A stretch of DNA of 64,000 nucleotides from a virus, in the IMG/VR virus record IMGVR_UViG_3300042090_002485, positions 96,001 to 160,000 of that record; one strand, given 5' to 3'. The notes below the pieces were generated by a model, which was given only the letters and a program-made list of their open reading frames with translations, was not told the DNA's origin and made no database searches. Shown in pieces: positions 1 to 53,979 of this stretch. A program made the position numbers and the translations under genes. The stretch's first letter is position 1; the number at the start of each line of letters is the position of its first letter.

Positions 1-108
1 CTGGCGACGGATCGGCTTGCGTGTTCGGGCGTCGCGCACCACCATCTCGATGGTTCCGCGCATCGGGATTCCCATCGCGCGCTGCTGCTGTACTCGCTTC
101 TGGCGCAT
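1..108 (-). CDS. 5' part of a probable virion structural gene, running off the window edge
   Basis: GGAGG then ATG at 108; reads MRQKRVQQQRAMGIPMRGTIEMVVRDARTRKPIRRQ with no stop; follows the baseplate genes. Confidence 0.55.
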   Translation of the reverse strand, partial: MRQKRVQQQRAMGIPMRGTIEMVVRDARTRKPIRRQ

Positions 109-126
109 GTTCCGGGCCTCCGAATT

Positions 127-2526
127 CTAGGTCACGACGAGGATGAGCGGGCTCTCCACCATGCCGATGTCTCGCGGCGCGGTCACCCCCTCTATAGTAC
201 CGTCCCACCCCGTGGCGGAAGGGTCGAAGGCCGCTGTTGTCATGGCCGGATCGATCCCACCCGTCTGCAGCGCCATGTCGCCGACCGTAGGGTCGACCGA
301 GCTGGTGGAGATGTTGCCGATGTTGAGCTGGCGGAACGTGACGTTGACGGTGGTTGCGGTCCAGGCCGTCAGCCGGGTAACCGTGCAGTTGACGTAGTCC
401 ACAGAGTAGTCGACGTTCTCGACCAGCGCCAAGCCGCCGATCGACCCGGCGGACATGTCAACCTTGACCAATCGACGCCGGTGGGGCGCCGATGGAGCGT
501 CGGGCAGCGTCACGGGCACGCTGGGCGTCGGGAACGCCGTGGATGCCGTGAAGACCTCGTAGTGGAAGAAGTCCCCCGAGATCCAGCCGTTCACCCCGGA
601 CGTCGGTGGGTCGTCGGTGAAGATCACCTCGTCGGGGCCGTAGACCCGCGAGCCCACCAGTCGGTCAAACGAGATGTCGACCTCGTCGACCTCGACATCG
701 TCCGAGAGGTAGGTGCCGGGCACGGTGAACGCGAAGGTGTGCGCGGGCTTGGCCGACTGGACCAGCGTGTTCAGGTTGTCGAGGCTCTGCGCGAATGCAG
801 CGGCCGACGACGCGATGGCGGACAGCGCGATCGCGTCGAACGACACGGAGAACGTGTGGAACTTGAGGTACTGGTCCATCAGGACGAACGCGAGGCGGTG
901 ACGCAGGATGGGCAGCGTGACGCCGTCCTCGACGCGCGGGGTCGGGATGAAGCCGTTCTCGTCGGCGCCGCAGAACAGGCCGGGGTCACCGCACAGAGCG
1001 CCGTCGTCTGGGTTGCAGACGTGAGCCACGAACACCGAGCTGGCGGTGCGCCGGCTGATCGGAGGCGGCGTGCCACCGAACAGCTGCTTGGGGATGACTT
1101 GCCCGTACCACCAGTTGGGCGTCTGGACGTAGTCCGTCACCGTGACCGCCGTGGTCAGCACCTCGAACGCCATCAAGGTTGTGCCCTGCGTTAGGTCCGT
1201 GCGCAGCGGCGTGTTCGGCGGGAAGTCGTACGTGATGGTCTGGCCCGACGATGGCGACGTCGTGAAGATGCGCCACACCGTCGGGTCGCTGGTGTCCGTC
1301 GACTGGTAGATCTCGCCGTCGCCGTGCACGACCGGCAGGTTCATGACGACGTTGAGCGCGCTCTCGATGCGGTCGAGCACGGGCCCGAGGATGTAGAGCT
1401 GGAAAATGCCCTGCAGGAACGCGCGGTACGCTTCCGAGCTGGGCTGGACGAAGCCGATCAGCGAGCCGAAGTTGTTCGCCAGCGTCATCTTGTCGACGAG
1501 CGCGTCCGGGGCCCACGCGGCGATCTCCAGGGCGGTCGTCGTGGTTGCCTGCGCCTGGATGACGCCGGTCGAGACGAGCCGCGGCGAGCTGCCCGACGTT
1601 GGGTAGACCTCTTCTTGCCACGTGTAGCTCATCCCGTAGGGCCCCGGCAGGTACAGCCACGTCGTGAGCACGTAGATGATGCCGGCTTCGTAGTTGACCT
1701 CGTAGTCCACCCCCTCGACAACGTTCGCGCCCGTCGGTCCCGAGGCGAAGATCGTCAACGAGCCCTGGTCGATGCGCGTGTGGGCGAGCTGGATCTGGCC
1801 GCCAACGACGGCATCCGATTCTGAGATCACCTGAGCGTTCGCAGGCACGCGCAAGATGACGTAGTCCACGCCCGACGCGAGCGCGGGCAGCGCATTGGTA
1901 GCGGTCACGAACAGCGCCGGGGTCCGCACCAATGCGATCGGGTAGTCGCCGAGCTTGCGCTGCGCGCCGTTGGTGCCAACGGCGAGCAGTCGAATGGTGT
2001 CACCCTTCTCGACGGGGGTCGTTGTCCAGTCGGTGACGCCAGCGTCGGTAAACTGGCCACCAACCGCGACGTCGACGGTCCGGCGCGCGAAGCCATCGAG
2101 CGGTACGCCGTTGCCGGTGGGGTCGGTCGGGTCGGCGTGGAACAGCACCACGCCGGAGGCAACCTCGTAGTCGAGGTTGGGCTCGAGCGACGCGGTTGGC
2201 TCGACCACTTGGTTGTCGATCGATGCGAACGAGACGACGGGGCTCGGCAGCGTGAACGCCCAGCGATTCGCAGGGGACGTCGTACCCTCGATGAAGCTGA
2301 TCTCGTCCTCGCGGATCGTCAGCATCTGGAACAGCTCGCGGTCGAGCGCGACGCAGTCCTGCAGCGACACGCCGAGCATCGCGGAGAGGTAGTCGAGGTA
2401 GGCCTGGCCGATGAGGATGGCCGTGCCCTCGTAGAGCGAGCCGAGCTGGTCGGCATCGGCGAAGAAGCGATTCCAGAAATCGCTAAGGCCACTTATCAGA
2501 TTATAAGAATATCCAACGGCGGGCAT
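127..2526 (-). CDS. Large baseplate/virion structural protein (799 aa)
   Basis: Long ORF with GC3-rich codons, beta-rich Thr/Val/Asp composition, downstream of baseplate J-like and gp25-like genes. Confidence 0.65.
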   Translation of the reverse strand: MPAVGYSYNLISGLSDFWNRFFADADQLGSLYEGTAILIGQAYLDYLSAMLGVSLQDCVALDRELFQMLTIREDEISFIEGTTSPANRWAFTLPSPVVSFASIDNQVVEPTASLEPNLDYEVASGVVLFHADPTDPTGNGVPLDGFARRTVDVAVGGQFTDAGVTDWTTTPVEKGDTIRLLAVGTNGAQRKLGDYPIALVRTPALFVTATNALPALASGVDYVILRVPANAQVISESDAVVGGQIQLAHTRIDQGSLTIFASGPTGANVVEGVDYEVNYEAGIIYVLTTWLYLPGPYGMSYTWQEEVYPTSGSSPRLVSTGVIQAQATTTTALEIAAWAPDALVDKMTLANNFGSLIGFVQPSSEAYRAFLQGIFQLYILGPVLDRIESALNVVMNLPVVHGDGEIYQSTDTSDPTVWRIFTTSPSSGQTITYDFPPNTPLRTDLTQGTTLMAFEVLTTAVTVTDYVQTPNWWYGQVIPKQLFGGTPPPISRRTASSVFVAHVCNPDDGALCGDPGLFCGADENGFIPTPRVEDGVTLPILRHRLAFVLMDQYLKFHTFSVSFDAIALSAIASSAAAFAQSLDNLNTLVQSAKPAHTFAFTVPGTYLSDDVEVDEVDISFDRLVGSRVYGPDEVIFTDDPPTSGVNGWISGDFFHYEVFTASTAFPTPSVPVTLPDAPSAPHRRRLVKVDMSAGSIGGLALVENVDYSVDYVNCTVTRLTAWTATTVNVTFRQLNIGNISTSSVDPTVGDMALQTGGIDPAMTTAAFDPSATGWDGTIEGVTAPRDIGMVESPLILVVT

Positions 2527-3086
2527 TAGTGCTCCTGCGTGTGGTTATACACACGTCGAACCCACTCGATGAACACGTCGATAGTCATGTCCCGCTTCGC
2601 ACAGTTGCAGGTACGACAGCACGCGACGACGTTGACTGCAGTGTATCCACGGTTATTGTCGACCCGATCAATACCATTGTATTTGAACGGAATTGCGTGT
2701 TTGAACCTCAAATTAAGACTATTGGAAAAGGATGTGCCGCAGTAGTTACAGGGGGCCTTAAATAAGGTAATGCAGGTCTCCAGCGAGAGGCGCCAGGCTA
2801 GATTGCGTAGACGGGCCTCGCGCCGGTATGTCGCAATCACCGCGTTAATGGCGCAGCGTTGTGGATCATCGTATCGACGTCCTTGCATGCTCCCGCAGCT
2901 CTTGGTCTTTCCGTTGCGGAGATGTGCGCCCAAAACTTCAACCGTTTTCTCGCAACGGGGACTTGAACAGCGACATGCGCAAATCCAATACAAACCACCT
3001 CCAGAACTGCGACGTTGCGTGTGGCGCAACACGGTCAAGAATCCGTAAACATTTCCGCTTTCGTCAATCGCACGGAGGTCTAGCAT
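2526..3086 (-). CDS. HNH homing endonuclease (186 aa)
   Basis: N-terminal YGFLTVL...YWICACRC...LRNGKTKSCG; C-terminal CNYCG...YNGIDRVDNNRGYTAVNVVACCRTCNCAK; AT-richer than flanks; TGATG and TAATG overlaps at the two ends. Confidence 0.85.
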   Translation of the reverse strand: MLDLRAIDESGNVYGFLTVLRHTQRRSSGGGLYWICACRCSSPRCEKTVEVLGAHLRNGKTKSCGSMQGRRYDDPQRCAINAVIATYRREARLRNLAWRLSLETCITLFKAPCNYCGTSFSNSLNLRFKHAIPFKYNGIDRVDNNRGYTAVNVVACCRTCNCAKRDMTIDVFIEWVRRVYNHTQEH

Positions 3087-5086
3087 CAGGTCCCCACCGG
3101 CTTGACGATGACGTCGGTCGTGTTCGCGACGTAGCGTATCGTCCGGTCGGTCACGCCGTAGGCGGCGAGCGTGTAGCTGGACGGTCCGCTGACCAGCTTG
3201 GATGGGTCGACGGTCACGACGTCGGTCGTTGCGTAGGTCCACACGTCGCCCGTGGGTGCGCGCAGTGCGTAGTTGATGGTCAGGATCGGGTTGCCTGCGA
3301 GCGCCGGCACGATGTTGGCGATCGTCGGGTACTCGTCCTTGACCGCCTGGATGATCGTCGAGACGTCGAGGCTGGCGACGCTGGCGTCGAAGCCACTGAT
3401 GAAGTCGGCGATGAACTGCGCGACCGCGTCGTCGTCGAGCGTCGCCGTCGCGTTGGCCGCGAGCTTGTAGGTCAGCACCATGCCGACGTTGACGGGGTTG
3501 TGCGCGCGGGGCAATTGGTAGGCCGCGACGACGCGCTCGACCGGACCGCGCACGAACTGGTCGATCGCGTCGAACTGATCGATCGTCCGGTAGGTCACGC
3601 GTAGGTTGTAGCCGTCGAACCGCGCCTGGACGGCGTCAGTGCCAACGATGATCTCCATCCACTGTTGTGCGCTCTGCGCCATCCCCGGGTTGTGCACGAC
3701 GGTCTGGAACTGAAGGCCGGTCGCTGGCGTCGCGGCCTGCTGCGGCGTCTGGTTGACCTGGTTGGGGAAGTGCTCGAAGCCGTCCTGTGTCGACACGAAC
3801 GCCGACTCCGCAATTGGCGGGTTGATGATCGCGACGTCGAGGATGTCCATCACCGGGCCGCCGGGCATGGTGGCGCGGCCGGACATGCCGACCGATGCTG
3901 ACGTCGAACCCGTAGTGTAGGGCACCCCGCCGGTGTCCGCGACGACGTCGTTGAACAGCGGTGGCACACGCCCGATGGTGTAGCTCACCGTCGTCGGCGG
4001 GTCGCCCTGGTCGGTGGCCACAGGGAACGGCGCCTGCTCGCTGACCAGCAGCGCCGTGCCCAGGTTCTCGGTCACCAGGAACTGCAGCGGGACCGTCGGC
4101 AGGCCCTCTGTGATGCTGATGATGTCGCCCGGTAAGACGCCGGTGAGGTCGACGATGCCGTCGCGGAACGCATTGGCGACGCCGTCAGGGCGTTGGTACA
4201 GCGCGCCTACCGCGCCGGTGAACGTGGTCTCGACCAGCGCGGTGCGCAGATAGATATCGACGCAGCCCCCGACGTGGACCTTGAGGTACGGTGCGACCGT
4301 CGGCACGATGTCGCGGATCATCTCCGCGTCGCCCATGCCGATGACGAGCACGGCGTCGATGCCGTCGAAGTTCTGGTCGAGTGTTGCGGGAATCGACCGG
4401 TTGTTGATGAGGTTGCGGACCGAGATTGCAGTCGGCGCGCGCGCGATCAACGCAGCCGTGTCCTCAGGCGGGTTGCCGCCGGAGAACTGCGCCGTCACCT
4501 CGATCGATGTGACGTAGGGGTTGAACCGGTCGAACCCCGCGAACTGGCCGGGCGCGACGTTGTACTGGCTGCCCGTCGCGACCGCGACCAGTGGGATGCG
4601 GAACTCGTAGTCGGTGACGCTGCCGGTGGTGTCGATGATCGGCACGAGCTGCGCCGCGGGGATAAACAGCGTGTCCCCCGCGTTGTCGACCACGAACACC
4701 AGGCCCGCCGAGTACGTGAACGCGACGGTCGCGGGCACGAACACGTCGACCTGGGTGGTCGAGTGGCCGATCGCGTAGCCGCGCGAGAACGTGCCCGCGC
4801 CCGCAGTGACGAAGAAGTTGGACAGGATGCCCGTGACGGCGTCGGCGAGCGCCTCTGGGTCGCCGCCAGTCGCGGCTTGGACCGAGACCAGCGACTGGGT
4901 CTGCCGGATCTGCGCGGCGTCGGCGCGCAGGAACGCCACCACCGCGGCGAGCGCCTGCACGGTGAGGTCGCGCAGCGCCGTGCCCGAGGAGAAGTCGCCC
5001 TCGGGGTTCTGGTCGCTGAGAAACTGCTCGAGGAAGTTCGCCGCCGCGATGACGTCCGTGGGGCTGATGGTGACTTGGACGCTCAT
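3086..5086 (-). CDS. Baseplate J-like wedge protein (666 aa)
   Basis: DFSSGTALRDLTV near the N-terminus; FSGGNPPEDTAALIARAPTAISVR resembles the baseplate J GGxDxExDxxLxxR motif; adjacent to gp25-like gene. Confidence 0.75.
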   Translation of the reverse strand: MSVQVTISPTDVIAAANFLEQFLSDQNPEGDFSSGTALRDLTVQALAAVVAFLRADAAQIRQTQSLVSVQAATGGDPEALADAVTGILSNFFVTAGAGTFSRGYAIGHSTTQVDVFVPATVAFTYSAGLVFVVDNAGDTLFIPAAQLVPIIDTTGSVTDYEFRIPLVAVATGSQYNVAPGQFAGFDRFNPYVTSIEVTAQFSGGNPPEDTAALIARAPTAISVRNLINNRSIPATLDQNFDGIDAVLVIGMGDAEMIRDIVPTVAPYLKVHVGGCVDIYLRTALVETTFTGAVGALYQRPDGVANAFRDGIVDLTGVLPGDIISITEGLPTVPLQFLVTENLGTALLVSEQAPFPVATDQGDPPTTVSYTIGRVPPLFNDVVADTGGVPYTTGSTSASVGMSGRATMPGGPVMDILDVAIINPPIAESAFVSTQDGFEHFPNQVNQTPQQAATPATGLQFQTVVHNPGMAQSAQQWMEIIVGTDAVQARFDGYNLRVTYRTIDQFDAIDQFVRGPVERVVAAYQLPRAHNPVNVGMVLTYKLAANATATLDDDAVAQFIADFISGFDASVASLDVSTIIQAVKDEYPTIANIVPALAGNPILTINYALRAPTGDVWTYATTDVVTVDPSKLVSGPSSYTLAAYGVTDRTIRYVANTTDVIVKPVGT

Positions 5087-5532
5087 TGCCGCACCGCCAA
5101 GGTTGGGAGCAGGAACTGCAGCTGCTGGCCCGAGACATTCGTGATCAAGATCTGCGCGGCGAACCCGGGCCCGTCGGGGATCTCGATGTAGGCCGTCACG
5201 GCCAACGTCGCAAGCCGCTCGTCGTCGGGCACCGCCGTGTCGCCCGACTGCCAGCCCGTGATCGCTTCGGCTGTCGAGGTGACCGCGGCGTCGAGCACCT
5301 CTCGCGCGTCCTCGAGCGCGACGTTGGAGCCGAGGAGGTAGGTGAGGTTGGTGCCGTAGGTCGAGTCGAGTGGGTCTGTGCCAATTGGCGTGAGCAGGTA
5401 CTTCGCCGCCATGTTGACGAGCTTCTGGATGCCACGCACTCCAAGCGAGCGCGTCTGGCCGAACGAGTAGAACGCCATGCCGTTGTAGTCGGCAGCGGGA
5501 ACGATCTGGATGTTGATGTCGTAGGCGGGCAT
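5083..5532 (-). CDS. gp25/GPW-like baseplate wedge protein (149 aa)
   Basis: GIQKLVNMAAKYLLTPIGTDPLDSTYGTNLTYLLG matches the gp25-like pattern; size and position fit. Confidence 0.75.
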   Translation of the reverse strand: MPAYDINIQIVPAADYNGMAFYSFGQTRSLGVRGIQKLVNMAAKYLLTPIGTDPLDSTYGTNLTYLLGSNVALEDAREVLDAAVTSTAEAITGWQSGDTAVPDDERLATLAVTAYIEIPDGPGFAAQILITNVSGQQLQFLLPTLAVRQ

Positions 5533-6635
5533 CAGGTTGGCTTCCCGTCTGACCAGAGGCCGGTCGTGAAGTCGAACGTCATCGGTGTCTGGACCTGGGG
5601 GCTGGCGCCAGTGAACCCCGTCGTCGCCGCGGTGAGCGCGGAAGTCTCCACCGCGATGGTCAGGGCGACGAAGTTGGCGTGCGCGGACTGCAGCGCCTTA
5701 ACGGCAGCGACGTTGTTATTCTCAAGCGTCGTCGCGCGATCGACGGTGAGCGACAAGTTGGCCGCGCGCGCGGTCGCCATCTGACTGCCGACCGGCGCGA
5801 GCGGCGGTACGGCGACGGCCGCCGAGCTGCCCGCGATGGTCGAGTCGGGATGGCCGGGCCAGTAGTTCGGCACCAGCGATGTCGGGTTGACTAGCGCGCG
5901 CAGCGCCCCGGAGATCAGCGCGGCCTGGAACCGCATCACGATGCCTGTCGCGGCCTGCGTCGAGAATCCAGGCTTGGTCCATCCCGTGGCGCCGCCCGCC
6001 CCGCCGACGGTGCCGATCGCCTGACCGGCGCCGATGACCTGGCCGTTCTTCACCGAGACCTGGGAGAGCCGGTAGTACTCGGTCTGGTAGCCCTGGAAGT
6101 CGCCATTGTGCTGGATGACGACGTAGATTCCGCCGTAGCCGATGTTCCCCATCGCAGCGGACGCGACCACCGTATCCTGGAAGTCGAGGACGGTCTGCGC
6201 CTGCTCGTTCGCATGCACGTCCGCAACCTCGGCCGAGCCCTGGGTCAGCTGAACGCCGACGAAGCGCACGACGCCGTCGGCGGCGGCGAACACGCTCTCA
6301 CCGAGCGTCGCGGCGTACTCGAGCGCCTGGTTGTAGGTCGCCACGCTGCCTGGCGGCGTTGCGGCGAACGGCAGCGGGTCGCCCCAGCCGCTGGTGACCA
6401 ACCGCTCGTTGCCCGGACCCTGCGCGAGCCCGCCTTTCTCGGCGAGCGGAGAACCGAACTGCTGGCGCAGCGGCGCCGGCGCGGTCTCGTAGAAGTAGGT
6501 CTTCGTCACCGGGTCGAACTCGGGGAAGGCCGGCGCCTGGTTCAGGTCCGAGCCAACGCGAGCGCGCTGCGCGGCGACCGCGCGCATCAGGTTCTGCGCG
6601 ATCGCGTCCTGCGGGGAGGCGGGGCTACCGGCCAC
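5532..6635 (-). CDS. M23 peptidase-fold protein with degenerate catalytic motifs (367 aa)
   Basis: GESVFAAADGVVRFVG...GYGGIYVVIQH...YQTEYYRLSQVSVKNGQVIGAGQAIGTVG is M23-like, but HxxxD and HxH are absent. Confidence 0.7.
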   Translation of the reverse strand: MAGSPASPQDAIAQNLMRAVAAQRARVGSDLNQAPAFPEFDPVTKTYFYETAPAPLRQQFGSPLAEKGGLAQGPGNERLVTSGWGDPLPFAATPPGSVATYNQALEYAATLGESVFAAADGVVRFVGVQLTQGSAEVADVHANEQAQTVLDFQDTVVASAAMGNIGYGGIYVVIQHNGDFQGYQTEYYRLSQVSVKNGQVIGAGQAIGTVGGAGGATGWTKPGFSTQAATGIVMRFQAALISGALRALVNPTSLVPNYWPGHPDSTIAGSSAAVAVPPLAPVGSQMATARAANLSLTVDRATTLENNNVAAVKALQSAHANFVALTIAVETSALTAATTGFTGASPQVQTPMTFDFTTGLWSDGKPT

Positions 6636-7383
6636 GGTCTTTACCCTCAGTGACGGCCTGGACGCGCGCGACGAGCTTGCCCTTGAGGTGCGAGTACTGC
6701 CCCTGTGTCAAGCCGAGCTTCTTCTGGATGTCCTGGTTCGACAACACCTCGGAATTCGCATAGCCAGTGAGGTGCTCGAAGATCACCTTCTGCGGCGGCG
6801 GTAGGTCGTGGTGGATGAAGTCGACGATGTGGTCGCTCTCGTCGGCGTCGTAGAGCCCGGCGTCGCTGCCCTCGAACAGGCCGCCGCTCTCGAGCATCTC
6901 GCGGCGCCCAATCGAGCGCTGGTACTCCCCGACCTTGTCGATCGGCCACGCCAGGCGGTCCGCCAGCTCGTCTACCGTCGGCGCGCGTCCGAGCGCGTCG
7001 GACAGCTCAGCGTGGGCGACATTGTAGCCGTGATAGAGCAACATGCGATTTTCTGGAAGTCGAGCGACATTCTGGTTAGTGTAGGACAGCCGCGACATGC
7101 GCTGCAGCTGGTTGACGACATGCGTGCCCAGCGCCGCGCCCTTCGCCGGATCGTAGCTGTGGAACGCCTGCATCGCGAGGCGTTTGCCTTCCGTCTCTAG
7201 CAGCGGCCGCGCGAGCGTGCCCGACCACTTATTCGCCTCGCGGTGGATCAGCGGAGAAACCTGCGCGAGCAGCGCGCTCGCGTTGGCATCCGTCGGCGCT
7301 GCCTTCCACACGCGCCACGCGTCCATGTCCGACGTCTGTCGGGTGGTCGCAGCGAGCTTCGCGATGGCAGCGAGCTTGGTCAC
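6625..7383 (-). CDS. Phage-encoded sigma-70-family sigma factor (FliA/WhiG-like, 252 aa)
   Basis: Region 2 QAFHSYDPAKGAALGTHV; region 3 LSDALGRAPTVDELADRLAWPIDKV; region 4 LPPPQKVIFEHLTGY...LSNQDIQKKLGLTQGQYSHLK. Confidence 0.85.
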   Translation of the reverse strand: MTKLAAIAKLAATTRQTSDMDAWRVWKAAPTDANASALLAQVSPLIHREANKWSGTLARPLLETEGKRLAMQAFHSYDPAKGAALGTHVVNQLQRMSRLSYTNQNVARLPENRMLLYHGYNVAHAELSDALGRAPTVDELADRLAWPIDKVGEYQRSIGRREMLESGGLFEGSDAGLYDADESDHIVDFIHHDLPPPQKVIFEHLTGYANSEVLSNQDIQKKLGLTQGQYSHLKGKLVARVQAVTEGKDRGR

Positions 7384-10300
7384 GTACGCGGGGCCTTGGC
7401 GACGAGAACATTGTCGCGGTAGGCGAGCAGAGCGGAATCCCAGTTCGCGGCGATCTGCGGGAACGACTGGTTGAGGCCAGGCACTGCCGTTGTGGTCGTG
7501 CCGTCGGCGCCCGGCGGCGGCGCGAAGTTGTCCGGCGGCGGGATGAACGTACGAACGCGCTCGAAGAAGCGAGCCCCGACGGAGCGAGGATGACCGAACG
7601 CGGGGATCGCGCCGATGCCAGCAACGTCGTAGAAGATGATGTACTCATCGAGCGTGCAGATCGGCCGCCAGTTGTAGCGCATCGCAGCGTCACGGCTGTC
7701 GAACATCGCCTGCGCTGACGGCAGCGGCACGAGCACTCGGCTCGGGTCGAGGTTGTGCTGGACCTGGGCGATGCCCGCAACGCTCGAGGGCGCCTGCAGT
7801 ATCGCGAGCTGGATCGCGAGCTGCTTGTTGAGCGACGTGAGCACGGCAGACGACACGTTGAGCTGCGTCTGCAGGACGGAAGTGTTGGCCACTTGCTCGT
7901 TGTACTGGGCCTGCAGCACGGTCGACGGCGTGCCGTCCGAGATCGCCTGTGCAGTGGACGCCTCTGCCGCTTGCGCCGCCGCGACCTGCGAGGTCAGCAG
8001 CGCGACCTGCGCGCTGATCTCCTGCTGCTGCGCGGTCAACGCCAGGATCTTCTGTGCCGTGGTCGCATTCGCGGTTTGCGCGCCCGAGTCTGGGCCGTCG
8101 ATGAAGATCGGTTCCGGCGAGCCACCGACGACCTCGGACTCGTAGCCCACGACGGTGCGGAAATCGAACGACGCGGGGCGGCCGAACAGCTGCTGGCCGC
8201 CGCAGAACAGCTGCTGATAAAACGTCTCGGCCTGCGGGAACGACTGCAGCACGTCGCTGACCGCGTTGATCGGCTCCTGCGGCCCCGAGCCGCGCGCGAA
8301 CGCGTCGTTTTGCTGGAACTCCGTGATCAGCGCCTCGAACATCTCCTGGAACTGGCGACCGTAGAGGTACGACAGCGTCGTGGCGCGCTGCCCATCGTGC
8401 GACATGAACTGCTGAACCGTCGTGAGGTAGACCATCAGGTCAACGCGCGTGGCGCGCTGGTCGAAGATGACGCCAGGGAAGCCGGGCACGACGTAGGGAT
8501 TCCACGCCACGGTCGCCGAGCCTGAGCGGCGCGCGTAGCGCTCGCGGAAGTACTCATACTTCGCGTAGAGGTGGTAGACGTCCTCAGCAGAGGCAGCGAT
8601 GGTCGCCTGCGTTGCCGTGGCGATGACCGGCGCGGGCGGTGGCTCAGGCGTCGGCGCCTGCGTGGTCGCCGGGGTCGGCGCTGCGGGCGCGGGCGTCCCA
8701 GCCGACGCAGTGAACGGCTGCGTGTTGCCCGCCGTAAGCATGCTGCCAGACGCCGTCGAGACGACGCCGCCCACGCCCGTGGCGTTGTTGATGTAGGCCT
8801 GCTCGATCGGCGTTAGCGACGGCGCAATCGCGTTGAACATCTGGTCCCACGACGTGGGCGTGCCGCCGAGCGCTGTAGTCGCGCGCGGAATGAAACCCTT
8901 TGGACTGTTGAAGAAGAATCCAGGCCCGACGTGGATCGCTTTGGCGAGGCGCCACTTGTCGCCCTCGGACCAGCCGGTGAGGCCGAACTGCGGCGCGTAG
9001 CGGTTGTCGACCTGCGTACGGTAGTAGCGTGCAAGCTTGCAACCCGCGTCGAGCGAGACCGCCTTGTTGGTCGACAGCAGCGCAGTCGGGCTCGGGTCAG
9101 GGCCTAGCTGACGCGGTGCGATCAGCGACGGACCGTTGACGCCGGTGTCCGCGGTGGTCAGGCCGATGATGCCGGCCTCGACCTGCGCGAGCGAGCGACC
9201 GTTGTTCGGCCCCATGATTTGGAAGTAACCGCGCTCGTTGAGGTTGGTGAGGCTCCTGATGTTGCCGCCGGACTCGTGGTTGATCCACGCGAGCGCGAAC
9301 TCCTCGGGGATGCCGTACTTGGTGATCGCAGCCTTGAACGCAGGGTCGTTGCGCAGCGCCTCGACGGCAGGCAAGTACTTGCGCGGGCTCGTCGGGCCGA
9401 AGCCGACCTGCGCCGACGTGCAATTCATGCAATTCGACGGCACGCTCGCCTTCTGCGGCGGGGTCGTCGTGCCGGTGCGCGCGGGCGGCGCCTGGTTGGC
9501 CGGCGGCGCGCCGGGGTTGTCTTTTGGGACCGTGGTCTTCGTGTTCTCCTTCTGCTTGATCCCGAACAACCAGGGGGGCACCGGGCGGCGGTCCATGACC
9601 GGGCCCTTGAAGAACTCTTCGGGGTAGAGCAGGAAGTTCTTGTTGTTGAGGTTCGGCGTGGTCTTGCTGACCTGCAGATTCTTATCGGCCTGCGGCGGGT
9701 AGCCGATGGCGAGCGCGTTCATGATCGAGTCGCGCAGGCCGCTGGTCGGGACCTTGAGGATCTGCGCGATGACCTCGTCGTTGAAGTACAACCGCGTCGG
9801 CTGGGTCGCGTAGTTCTCCTCGTATGCGATCGTCTTGAGCTGCGAGGGGAAGATGACGTTGCACGCTGGCGGGATGCTGAACAGCATCTGCGGCTTGGGG
9901 AAGTAGTTCTGCATCCGCAGCGGTGCCTTGGCGCGGCTGGCATCGGATACGGCAGGCACCCACTGGCCAGACGCGCTCGCCGCCGACGCGGCCGCCGCCG
10001 GCGCATTGTCCGGCCCGGAGATGCCGGGACCCGACGTGAATACGTCGGAGAGCACGAGCTGGTGGCTTGCGAAGTCGGTGGCCAAGACGAGGCTTGACGC
10101 AAAGTCGACACTCACCAGCGGCATCGCCGGTAGCATCGCGACCTCCATCAGCATGGTCTGGAAGACCAGCTGCAACATGTCCCAGATGGACCCGGTGTTC
10201 TGGACCTGCTGCATCAGGTTCTTGCAGACGGTGTTGATGGCCGTCGTACTCTGCACCGCCTGCAGTACCGGAAAGATGCTCGCGTTACCAGCGTTCAAAT

Positions 10301-52940: not shown

Positions 52941-53128
52941 CGTGGACCGATCCCACCGGCATCACCCACGAGATGGTACGCACAGCGAACTTCAAGACGA
53001 CGTTCGGTTACGGCCTCAACTGCGAACCCGCGCTGTTGTTCGGCATGGGCGCGTCGAATTGGCCGACGCGTGTGGTGACGTGCGTGAAGTGCCGAGCGGC
53101 CGAGCCATGGCCGGGGCCGGGCCTATGA
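52937..53128 (+). CDS. HCCC zinc-finger microprotein 29 (63 aa)
   Basis: MTWTDPTGITHEM...LNCE...VVTCVKCRA. Confidence 0.75.
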   Translation: MTWTDPTGITHEMVRTANFKTTFGYGLNCEPALLFGMGASNWPTRVVTCVKCRAAEPWPGPGL

Positions 53129-53334
53129 CGTTGACCTGGCGCGACGCCGCGGGCGTTGTTCACCGCGTCTATGACGTGACGGGCTGGATGTTTATGTGTC
53201 CCTATGACCTCCGAATATGTAGGTTCTTTGGGTGCGACGTCCTAACGACGATCAGCGACGAGGCAATTCGAGTCGACGGCGTGGTGACGTGCGTGGAGTG
53301 CTTGGCCGTGCTGGCCATCACAGGAAAGGAGTAA
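53125..53334 (+). CDS. HCCC zinc-finger microprotein 30 (69 aa)
   Basis: WRDAAGVVH...C...VVTCVECLA. Confidence 0.75.
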   Translation: MTLTWRDAAGVVHRVYDVTGWMFMCPYDLRICRFFGCDVLTTISDEAIRVDGVVTCVECLAVLAITGKE

Positions 53335-53794
53335 CCATGCTTATCCGGTTGTCACCCAAGGAATGCGTAACTCATGAAACGTAAGAAGGTCACAGAGGCG
53401 TTCCAGTATTTGGACGTCGACTGGAATCGCACGTTCAAGCCGAAGTGGAGTGACTCGGCCGTCGAGTTGACCTTCTACAAAGGCAAGGTGCTCGTCAGCG
53501 TGCCGTACGGCACCGCGCGCGCGAAGGCACTCCAGGAGCAAACAGGGTTCGTCGTGGCGGGGTCCGCGTGGCTTCACGCCAAGGATATCGACGGCCTCAT
53601 CAAGCTCCTGCGTGAAGGACGCCGCGTCTATATGCAGCACCAGCGAGATGCTCTCAAGGTCGCCAACTGCGATGACTGTCGCAAGATTTTCGGCGGTGTC
53701 TGCGATCGTCACCGACCGCTGTTCAAGAAGTACGGCAAGAAGAAATCTCCGCCACGGGGACTCCGATGACTGGGTGTCAACCGGATAAGCATGG
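53335..53794. mobile_element. 460-bp non-autonomous element with 24-bp terminal inverted repeats and a 6-bp direct repeat, carrying one ORF
   Basis: Left CCATGCTTATCCGGTTGTCACCCA (53335-53358) vs right TGGGTGTCAACCGGATAAGCATGG (53771-53794): 23/24 complementary; GAGTAA at 53329-53334 and 53795-53800. Confidence 0.75.
53374..53769 (+). CDS. Basic cargo protein of the IR-bounded element (131 aa)
   Basis: Fills the space between the IRs; C-terminal CDDC...CDRH; no DDE or tyrosine-recombinase motif recognised. Confidence 0.75.
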   Translation: MKRKKVTEAFQYLDVDWNRTFKPKWSDSAVELTFYKGKVLVSVPYGTARAKALQEQTGFVVAGSAWLHAKDIDGLIKLLREGRRVYMQHQRDALKVANCDDCRKIFGGVCDRHRPLFKKYGKKKSPPRGLR

Positions 53795-53802
53795 GAGTAA
53801 CC

Positions 53803-53979
53803 ATGTTCCTGCCTGCTATGGAGGGCCGCTACGTCGACAACGACTACATCACGCACGTGTGCGTGCTGCAGACGATAGGTGTGCACCGATGGCGTACCCG
53901 CTGCAGTCTGACCCCAACGAACGCGCAGGTTGACCATATCCGAGTCACGGTCACCTGTGTGTTGTGCATCGCGCCGTGA
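53803..53979 (+). CDS. HCCC zinc-finger microprotein 31
   Basis: DYITH...TRC...TVTCVLCIA; GGAG RBS. Confidence 0.72.
   Translation: MFLPAMEGRYVDNDYITHVCVLQTIGVHRWRTRCSLTPTNAQVDHIRVTVTCVLCIAP

Follow-up and report, generated by a model that had tools for sequence, protein, structure and literature searches.

The window, which here designates the whole stretch of 64,000 nucleotides analyzed, covers bases 96001-160000 of a 187,862-bp IMG/VR record with direct terminal repeats and a G+C content of ~65%. At the locus of interest, where all genes lie on the + strand, an intact small "finger" gene (finger 30, 53125-53334, 69 aa, as called on the identical contig L007) precedes a second intact small "finger" gene (finger 31, 53803-53979, 58 aa, from the sequence and its ORF list), and the two are separated by a 458-bp element bounded by terminal inverted repeats. 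The element encloses a single ORF of 131 aa on the + strand (53374-53769), referred to below as the cargo, whose start codon lies 14 nt inward of the left repeat and whose stop codon ends 1 nt before the right one. The cargo thus fills the interior nearly end to end, and the element is reduced to bare ends plus one gene. Its G+C content is 58%, compared with 63% in the flanks.

The left terminal inverted repeat (24 nt, 53336-53359, + strand, starting with CATGCTTATCC) agrees at every conserved position with the consensus of the family described below, and the right one (24 nt, 53770-53793, - strand) begins one base past the cargo stop codon. A preliminary description of this DNA had reported 24-bp arms at 53335-53358 and 53771-53794, complementary at 23 of 24 positions, and this observation holds: the window contains no further copy of the 24-nt arm, two matches were reached in 0 of 100 shuffles, and in the whole phage genome the arm is present as these two ends only. 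A one-base shift in register nevertheless places the element proper at 53336-53793. Several family members whose duplication has no initial G or no final C still carry perfect 8-mers (GTTCGTTT, ACTTGTTC, CCTTCTTC, ATTGCGAA, GATCTATG, and others); hence, the outer C/G pair of the arm as first drawn belongs to the duplication. With the register set by family members in this way, the flanking GAGTAA noted earlier is indeed seen on both sides, but the target-site duplication is 8 bp long and not 6, with the sequence GGAGTAAC at 53328-53335 on the left and at 53794-53801 on the right.

The position of this 8-mer accounts for the integrity of both neighbors, since it holds the upstream stop codon (TAA, 53332-53334, within the left copy) beside a Shine-Dalgarno-like GGAG, which in the right copy serves finger 31 as its ribosome-binding site. 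Deleting the element with one copy of the repeat gives the junction ...AAAGGAGTAACCATGTTC..., in which the finger 30 stop is again joined to the ribosome-binding site and start codon (ATG, 53803) of finger 31, as had been proposed. The left GGAG now stands 5 nt ahead of an ATG inside the left repeat and opens a leader frame of 15 codons, read directly from the sequence (53337-53384, + strand), which ends at TAA 53382-53384 and overlaps the cargo start (ATG, 53374). A weak AAGGA site also precedes the cargo at 53358-53362. Judging from this arrangement, the leader frame and the AAGGA site could serve cargo translation, perhaps by translational coupling. Scanning the element and its surroundings for sigma-70 promoters and for terminators revealed no promoter-like or terminator-like site inside it and, all genes here being on the + strand, read-through transcription is the simplest assumption. 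For this phage, the insertion is a neutral, recent-looking gain of one gene with no function assigned.

The same ends are widespread. Exact matching of a 22-nt arm pattern against IMG/VR returned 15 other viral stretches, a second pattern with the flank left unconstrained returned 36, and the arm pattern was found in 52 bacterial contigs from many phyla and classes, including Alpha- and Betaproteobacteria, Acidobacteriota, Verrucomicrobiota, Actinomycetes, Myxococcota, and Planctomycetota. When copies are aligned at their termini, conservation is near complete over 23 to 24 nt and stops abruptly at the outer base, giving the end consensus C-R-TGCTTATCCGGTTG-W-CACCCA. Inverted partner ends were found at most loci, and perfect 8-bp direct repeats flank 25 viral elements (this one counted) and 20 bacterial elements. 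Many of the bacterial matches lie ~120 to 150 nt from contig ends, as expected of a multicopy insertion sequence. In one metagenome-assembled genome labeled Bordetella parapertussis, eleven contigs (L038, L039, L041, L045, L047, L052, L056 to L058, L061, and L074) carry such an end ~120 to 150 nt from the contig end, a pattern that is the signature of a highly multiplied, assembly-breaking insertion sequence.

These elements range from 101 to 2587 bp and fall into four forms: MITEs of 101 to 300 bp with no ORF, cassettes of 341 to 810 bp with one or two small ORFs, plain insertion sequence copies of ~1168 bp (~1.17 kb) with a single 335- to 346-aa ORF, and copies of 1.5 to 2.6 kb in which the 335- to 346-aa ORF is accompanied by passenger genes. 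The long ORF of the full-length members is an IS1595-family DDE transposase, as it matches PF12762 (the IS1595 DDE domain, E values of 1e-28 to 3e-35), PF12760 (a zinc ribbon), and NCBIfam NF033547 (185 to 191 bits). In L008, L019, L028, L032, and others, the same 23-nt ends enclose such a transposase, and the family transposases are 55 to 94% identical to one another among viral and bacterial copies. Among annotated plasmids, the closest relative that bears a name is the Acidiphilium element ISAcr1, which NCBI labels IS1595-like; its ends agree with the family consensus at 20 of 23 positions, and the 8-mer ATATATTG is present on either side. The IS1595 family is characterized by a duplication of 8 bp, one transposase gene, and a zinc finger at the N terminus (PMC8101967), and it is the family in which transporter insertion sequences were first described (Siguier, Gagnevin & Chandler 2009, as cited in PMC3129680). 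The authors of ISfinder defined these as insertion sequences with passengers, and mobile insertion cassettes (MICs) as transposase-less derivatives with passenger genes (PMC3129680). The element in the window shares its ends with transposase-encoding members, is flanked by the 8-bp duplication, and has between its repeats a passenger gene only and no transposase. We therefore conclude with high confidence that this 458-bp unit is a mobile insertion cassette, derived from an ISAcr1-like insertion sequence of the IS1595 family but devoid of a transposase. The preliminary description had already suspected a MITE-like or cassette-like unit carrying a gene, and the dozens of same-ended elements with duplications and different cargo, together with the IS1595 transposase of the full-length members, bear it out.

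An alternative would be the insertion of a gene by illegitimate or microhomology-mediated recombination, i.e., ordinary phage mosaicism, with the inverted repeats being incidental. A 12-bp direct repeat, GGAGTAACCATG, which includes the GAGTAA, does flank the unit, and the homology to a related gene on the contig L004 (79% identical to the cargo) is limited to the ORF, as mosaicism would have it. However, the 12-mer decomposes into the 8-bp duplication plus CATG, which is on the left the first four bases of the element and on the right native sequence including the start codon, and at least 44 further elements with 8-bp duplications have the very same 23-nt ends. We consider recombination at the 12-mer highly improbable.

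The inverted-repeat arrangement taken alone would also suit an invertible segment, an alternative raised from the outset, or a pair of operators bracketing a regulated gene. The phage contains a quasi-palindromic motif, GTT-N6-ATAARC, with 7 exact copies in the window (19121, 24432, 32364, 40489, 41665, 45311, and 54152), all on the + strand, compared with 0.14 expected. This motif probably serves the phage as an operator or promoter element and is unrelated to the transposon ends. The right arm is one mismatch away from it, and the preliminary description had read the right repeat as holding a variant of a window-wide element and possibly a regulatory site. GTC-N6-ATAAGC, the form considered at first, is not enriched as a window-wide motif (13 occurrences with one mismatch, compared with 6.8 expected). 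Since unrelated bacteria also conserve the arm sequence, the resemblance between the right arm and the phage motif is most likely due to chance, and a phage regulatory site in the repeat is not supported. Neither is a role of the repeats as paired operators only, the same arms being found in bacteria of many phyla and in only two copies in this genome. As for inversion, neither PF00239 (resolvase/invertase) nor PF00589 (tyrosine recombinase) was detected in the phage genome, with controls positive in 13 to 14 of 14 genomes, the element has one orientation in all three independent assemblies, and the direct target duplication in its flanks is a transposition signature. An invertible segment or operator pair is, of the readings weighed here, the one to which we give the least credit, with a probability close to nil.

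With a mobile insertion cassette as the preferred reading, the source of its mobility has to lie outside this phage. No IS1595 transposase was detected in the 188-kb genome by protein search and by the family model, the latter with a control that matched in 2 of 14 control genomes; the transposase or recombinase that might have been encoded elsewhere in the genome was thus not found. As the genome contains neither transposase, resolvase, nor integrase, any mobilization must be in trans; the lack of serine and tyrosine recombinases also fits a nonintegrating lifestyle. Further copies of the repeat and an empty-site allele in relatives had both been named as decisive for the proposal of a mobile unit. 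The former are abundant; the latter was not found, an exact 23-mer over the predicted empty junction (...AAAGGAGTAACCATGTTCC...) being absent from the viral and metagenome contig collections. This is explained by the nature of the other cassette-bearing contigs, L006 and L007, which are the same phage (99.98 to 100% identity), and no diverged relative of the region is available for comparison. The searches likewise showed this particular cassette at no second site. The 191-aa neighbor gene had no relatives in our searches, the 71-aa neighbor gene was found on one contig (L075) that is not syntenic, and a large structural ORF gave remote matches only, to Vibrio and Salmonella phages.

The cargo protein itself belongs to no Pfam or PHROG family, and, as the preliminary description had noted, it carries no recognizable transposase motif; it is unlike the family transposase. 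Neither the element DNA nor the protein matched anything in 50,697 GenBank phage records, the related-locus search of viral contigs with the protein or its alignments returned no cargo relatives, and no significant match emerged from comparisons with PDB sequence profiles, Foldseek (PDB and BFVD), VIA-align wide, and the ESM Atlas. An exhaustive profile-free search recovered 20 cargo-family representatives at an E value of <1e-3. The sequence reads as four strands and a long helix, followed by a C-x2-C...C-x2-H motif and a basic tail; this motif near the C terminus is invariant in the closer homologues and absent from more distant ones. The AlphaFold2 model (mean pLDDT of 82) likewise predicts four strands and then a long helix, with no RNase-H fold. 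PC4/Pur-alpha folds are weakly matched by the model (Foldseek probability of 0.44 to 0.60; Z of 4.4 to 4.5), the ESM Atlas structure search pointed to PC4/YdbC and DUF3276 clusters (TM of 0.41 to 0.58), and BFVD returned uncharacterized small phage proteins only. We take from these models a possible role in nucleic acid binding for this small protein, strictly as a lead.

Among the closer homologues, that on L005 (76% identical to the cargo) is a normal operon member, translationally coupled to its neighbor and free of nearby repeats. On L004, where the homologue lies outside the element, a family end with its subterminal sequence (L004:108-175) is found 4 nt upstream of its start codon. The rare family repeat therefore adjoins two of the three close cargo homologues, a proximity that simple passenger status does not explain. 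This could suggest that the 131-aa ORF is itself the mobility protein, i.e., an unconventional transposase of a self-mobilizing ultra-small element comparable to the mycobacteriophage MPME1 and MPME2. These are likewise found in phage genomes and share with our element a length of ~440 to 460 bp, boundaries made of inverted repeats, and a single ORF of ~125 to 130 aa, and the Cys/His motif and basic tail of the cargo would not be out of place in such a protein. Sampson et al. 2009 reportedly described MPME repeats of 11 bp. MPME1 measures 439 bp (PMC3029335), close to the 458 bp observed here. The MPME ORF is regarded as the mobility protein. MPME insertion, however, leaves the target unduplicated and brings 6 extra bp at the left repeat (PMC3029335), in contrast to the clean 8-bp duplication of the present element. 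The two also have no sequence similarity, and the features by which MPMEs are recognized (no duplication, 6 extra bp, conserved ORF) were not found here; neither the ORF nor the element is matched in GenBank phages. Other same-ended cassettes carry unrelated ORFs, the full-length members encode a DDE transposase, and the L005 homologue is free of repeats, which argues that the cargo is not transposition machinery. A self-mobilizing element of the MPME kind is, in our opinion, very unlikely.

Diversity of content is indeed the rule for the mobile insertion cassettes of this family: the ORFs of the short cassettes are mutually unrelated and share nothing in sequence. On viral contigs, transposase-less forms predominate: five copies are MITE-sized, about ten are cassettes of 341 to 783 bp with one gene each, and two 1191-bp forms contain three small ORFs (L021) or a 343-aa nontransposase ORF (L079/L083). 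The transposase-bearing viral copies (1712 to 2563 bp) are every one longer than the plain bacterial insertion sequence, so that each has room for passenger genes, and passenger ORFs were found in L008, L019, L082, and L091. Among the accessory genes typical of phages are DNA methyltransferases, which act against restriction by the host. The passengers at L091:3216-4619 include an N6/N4 DNA methyltransferase, and the passenger at L082:4802-5449 gave a weak C5 DNA methyltransferase match, barely above the Pfam cutoff. A tandem arrangement is seen at L020:3538-4588, where a 442-bp and a 592-bp cassette, each with a different single gene, follow one another head to tail. The 8-mer GAAAGAAC occurs there in three identical copies, one on each outer side and one at the boundary, which suggests repeated insertion into the duplicated target. 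Family members also accumulate on a 117-kb viral contig (L097, IMGVR_UViG_3300050119_000104, positions 29-9280), where at least 12 family ends occur within ~10 kb, some of them belonging to 235-bp MITE copies flanked by perfect duplications; L080, L092, and L094 lie on the same contig.

Many members have in addition a subterminal palindrome, ~CCCACTA-N4-TAGTGGG, at positions ~25 to 45 from each terminus, and many show TTGACA, inside the repeat, followed by N17-TAGnnT and reading inward (features seen in L025:2567-2667, L024, L031, L010, L020, and L021). From their sequence, these may correspond to a transposase promoter plus a hairpin; the 458-bp cassette has neither. The target 8-mers are AT-richer than their surroundings and weakly palindromic. 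A preference for sites just upstream of start codons was considered and dropped, as a crude test gave no enrichment (4 of 27 viral ends, compared with 16% of control positions).

The element thus belongs to a known kind; what is notable is its location in a large phage genome and its membership of a family whose cassettes ferry many different genes in uncultured phages. Like the MICs described so far, it has insertion-sequence-type ends around passenger gene(s), no transposase, and a target duplication, and such elements are presumed to be mobilized in trans by the cognate insertion sequence. Known examples are MIC231 of IS231 in Bacillus cereus (De Palmenaer et al. 2004, as cited in PMC3129680) and the qnrS2 MIC on Aeromonas plasmids (PMC5444012). 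The parent of MIC231 is of the IS4/IS231 type, whereas that of our element is IS1595/ISAcr1-like; furthermore, the present cassette was found in the genome of a large phage that has direct terminal repeats, and a small phage-type ORF fills nearly the whole interior of the cassette. ISAcr1, from plasmids of Acidiphilium cryptum and A. multivorum and as named by NCBI, resembles it by the terminal repeat (20 of 23 positions) and the 8-bp duplication but encodes its own transposase, the gene of which is ~67% identical in DNA to that of the plain insertion sequence of the family. ISAcr1 also has the subterminal palindrome of many family members, unlike the window element. The transporter insertion sequences of the IS1595 family similarly have IS1595-type ends enclosing passenger genes, and viral copies of this type are found here (L008, L019, L082, L085, L089, and L091, some with DNA methyltransferases); they keep their transposase, whereas the window element lost it or never had it. 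Finally, the family cassettes recall integron gene cassettes in being single promoterless ORFs with a short recognition sequence and an enzyme encoded elsewhere, and in their tandem stacking (L020). The likeness is functional only, since integrons rely on site-specific recombination by a tyrosine recombinase at attC/attI and not on DDE transposition with target duplication.

We propose a model in which a cognate IS1595-family DDE transposase, provided in trans by a host copy or by a coinfecting element, would have bound both ends of the cassette and inserted it at the 8-bp target GGAGTAAC between the two small genes. The 8-mer would have been duplicated when the staggered cut was repaired, so that finger 30 kept its stop codon, finger 31 kept its ribosome-binding site, and the insertion did no harm. 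The cargo would then probably be transcribed by read-through in the shared + orientation, and its translation would probably depend either on the weak AAGGA site or on coupling to the 15-codon leader.

To our knowledge, phage genomes of the lytic type seldom contain insertion sequences, and the movement of small accessory genes between unrelated phages is mostly unexplained. The elements described here offer an explicit mechanism for such gene transfer, with a defined 23- to 24-nt end, an 8-bp duplication, and a known transposase family, and with more than 20 natural viral cassettes carrying different cargo. None of these occurs in the 50,697 GenBank phage records, from which the family ends and close relatives of the family transposase are absent. 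Annotators thereby gain a motif for finding such cassettes, and the idea is open to a simple transposition assay. Beyond this locus, a tentative hypothesis, which we hold as possible but not as the probable outcome, could be that ISAcr1-like ends serve as a trans-mobilized gene shuttle for phage accessory genes. Diverse single-ORF cassettes and larger, methyltransferase-carrying forms would move between uncultured phages, land in AT-richer spacers without gene breakage, and stack in tandem by reusing the duplicated target. If so, the ends found beside two of the three close cargo homologues would reflect cargo capture, and the family would constitute a transposon-based counterpart of integron cassettes and a concrete route for the phage "morons."
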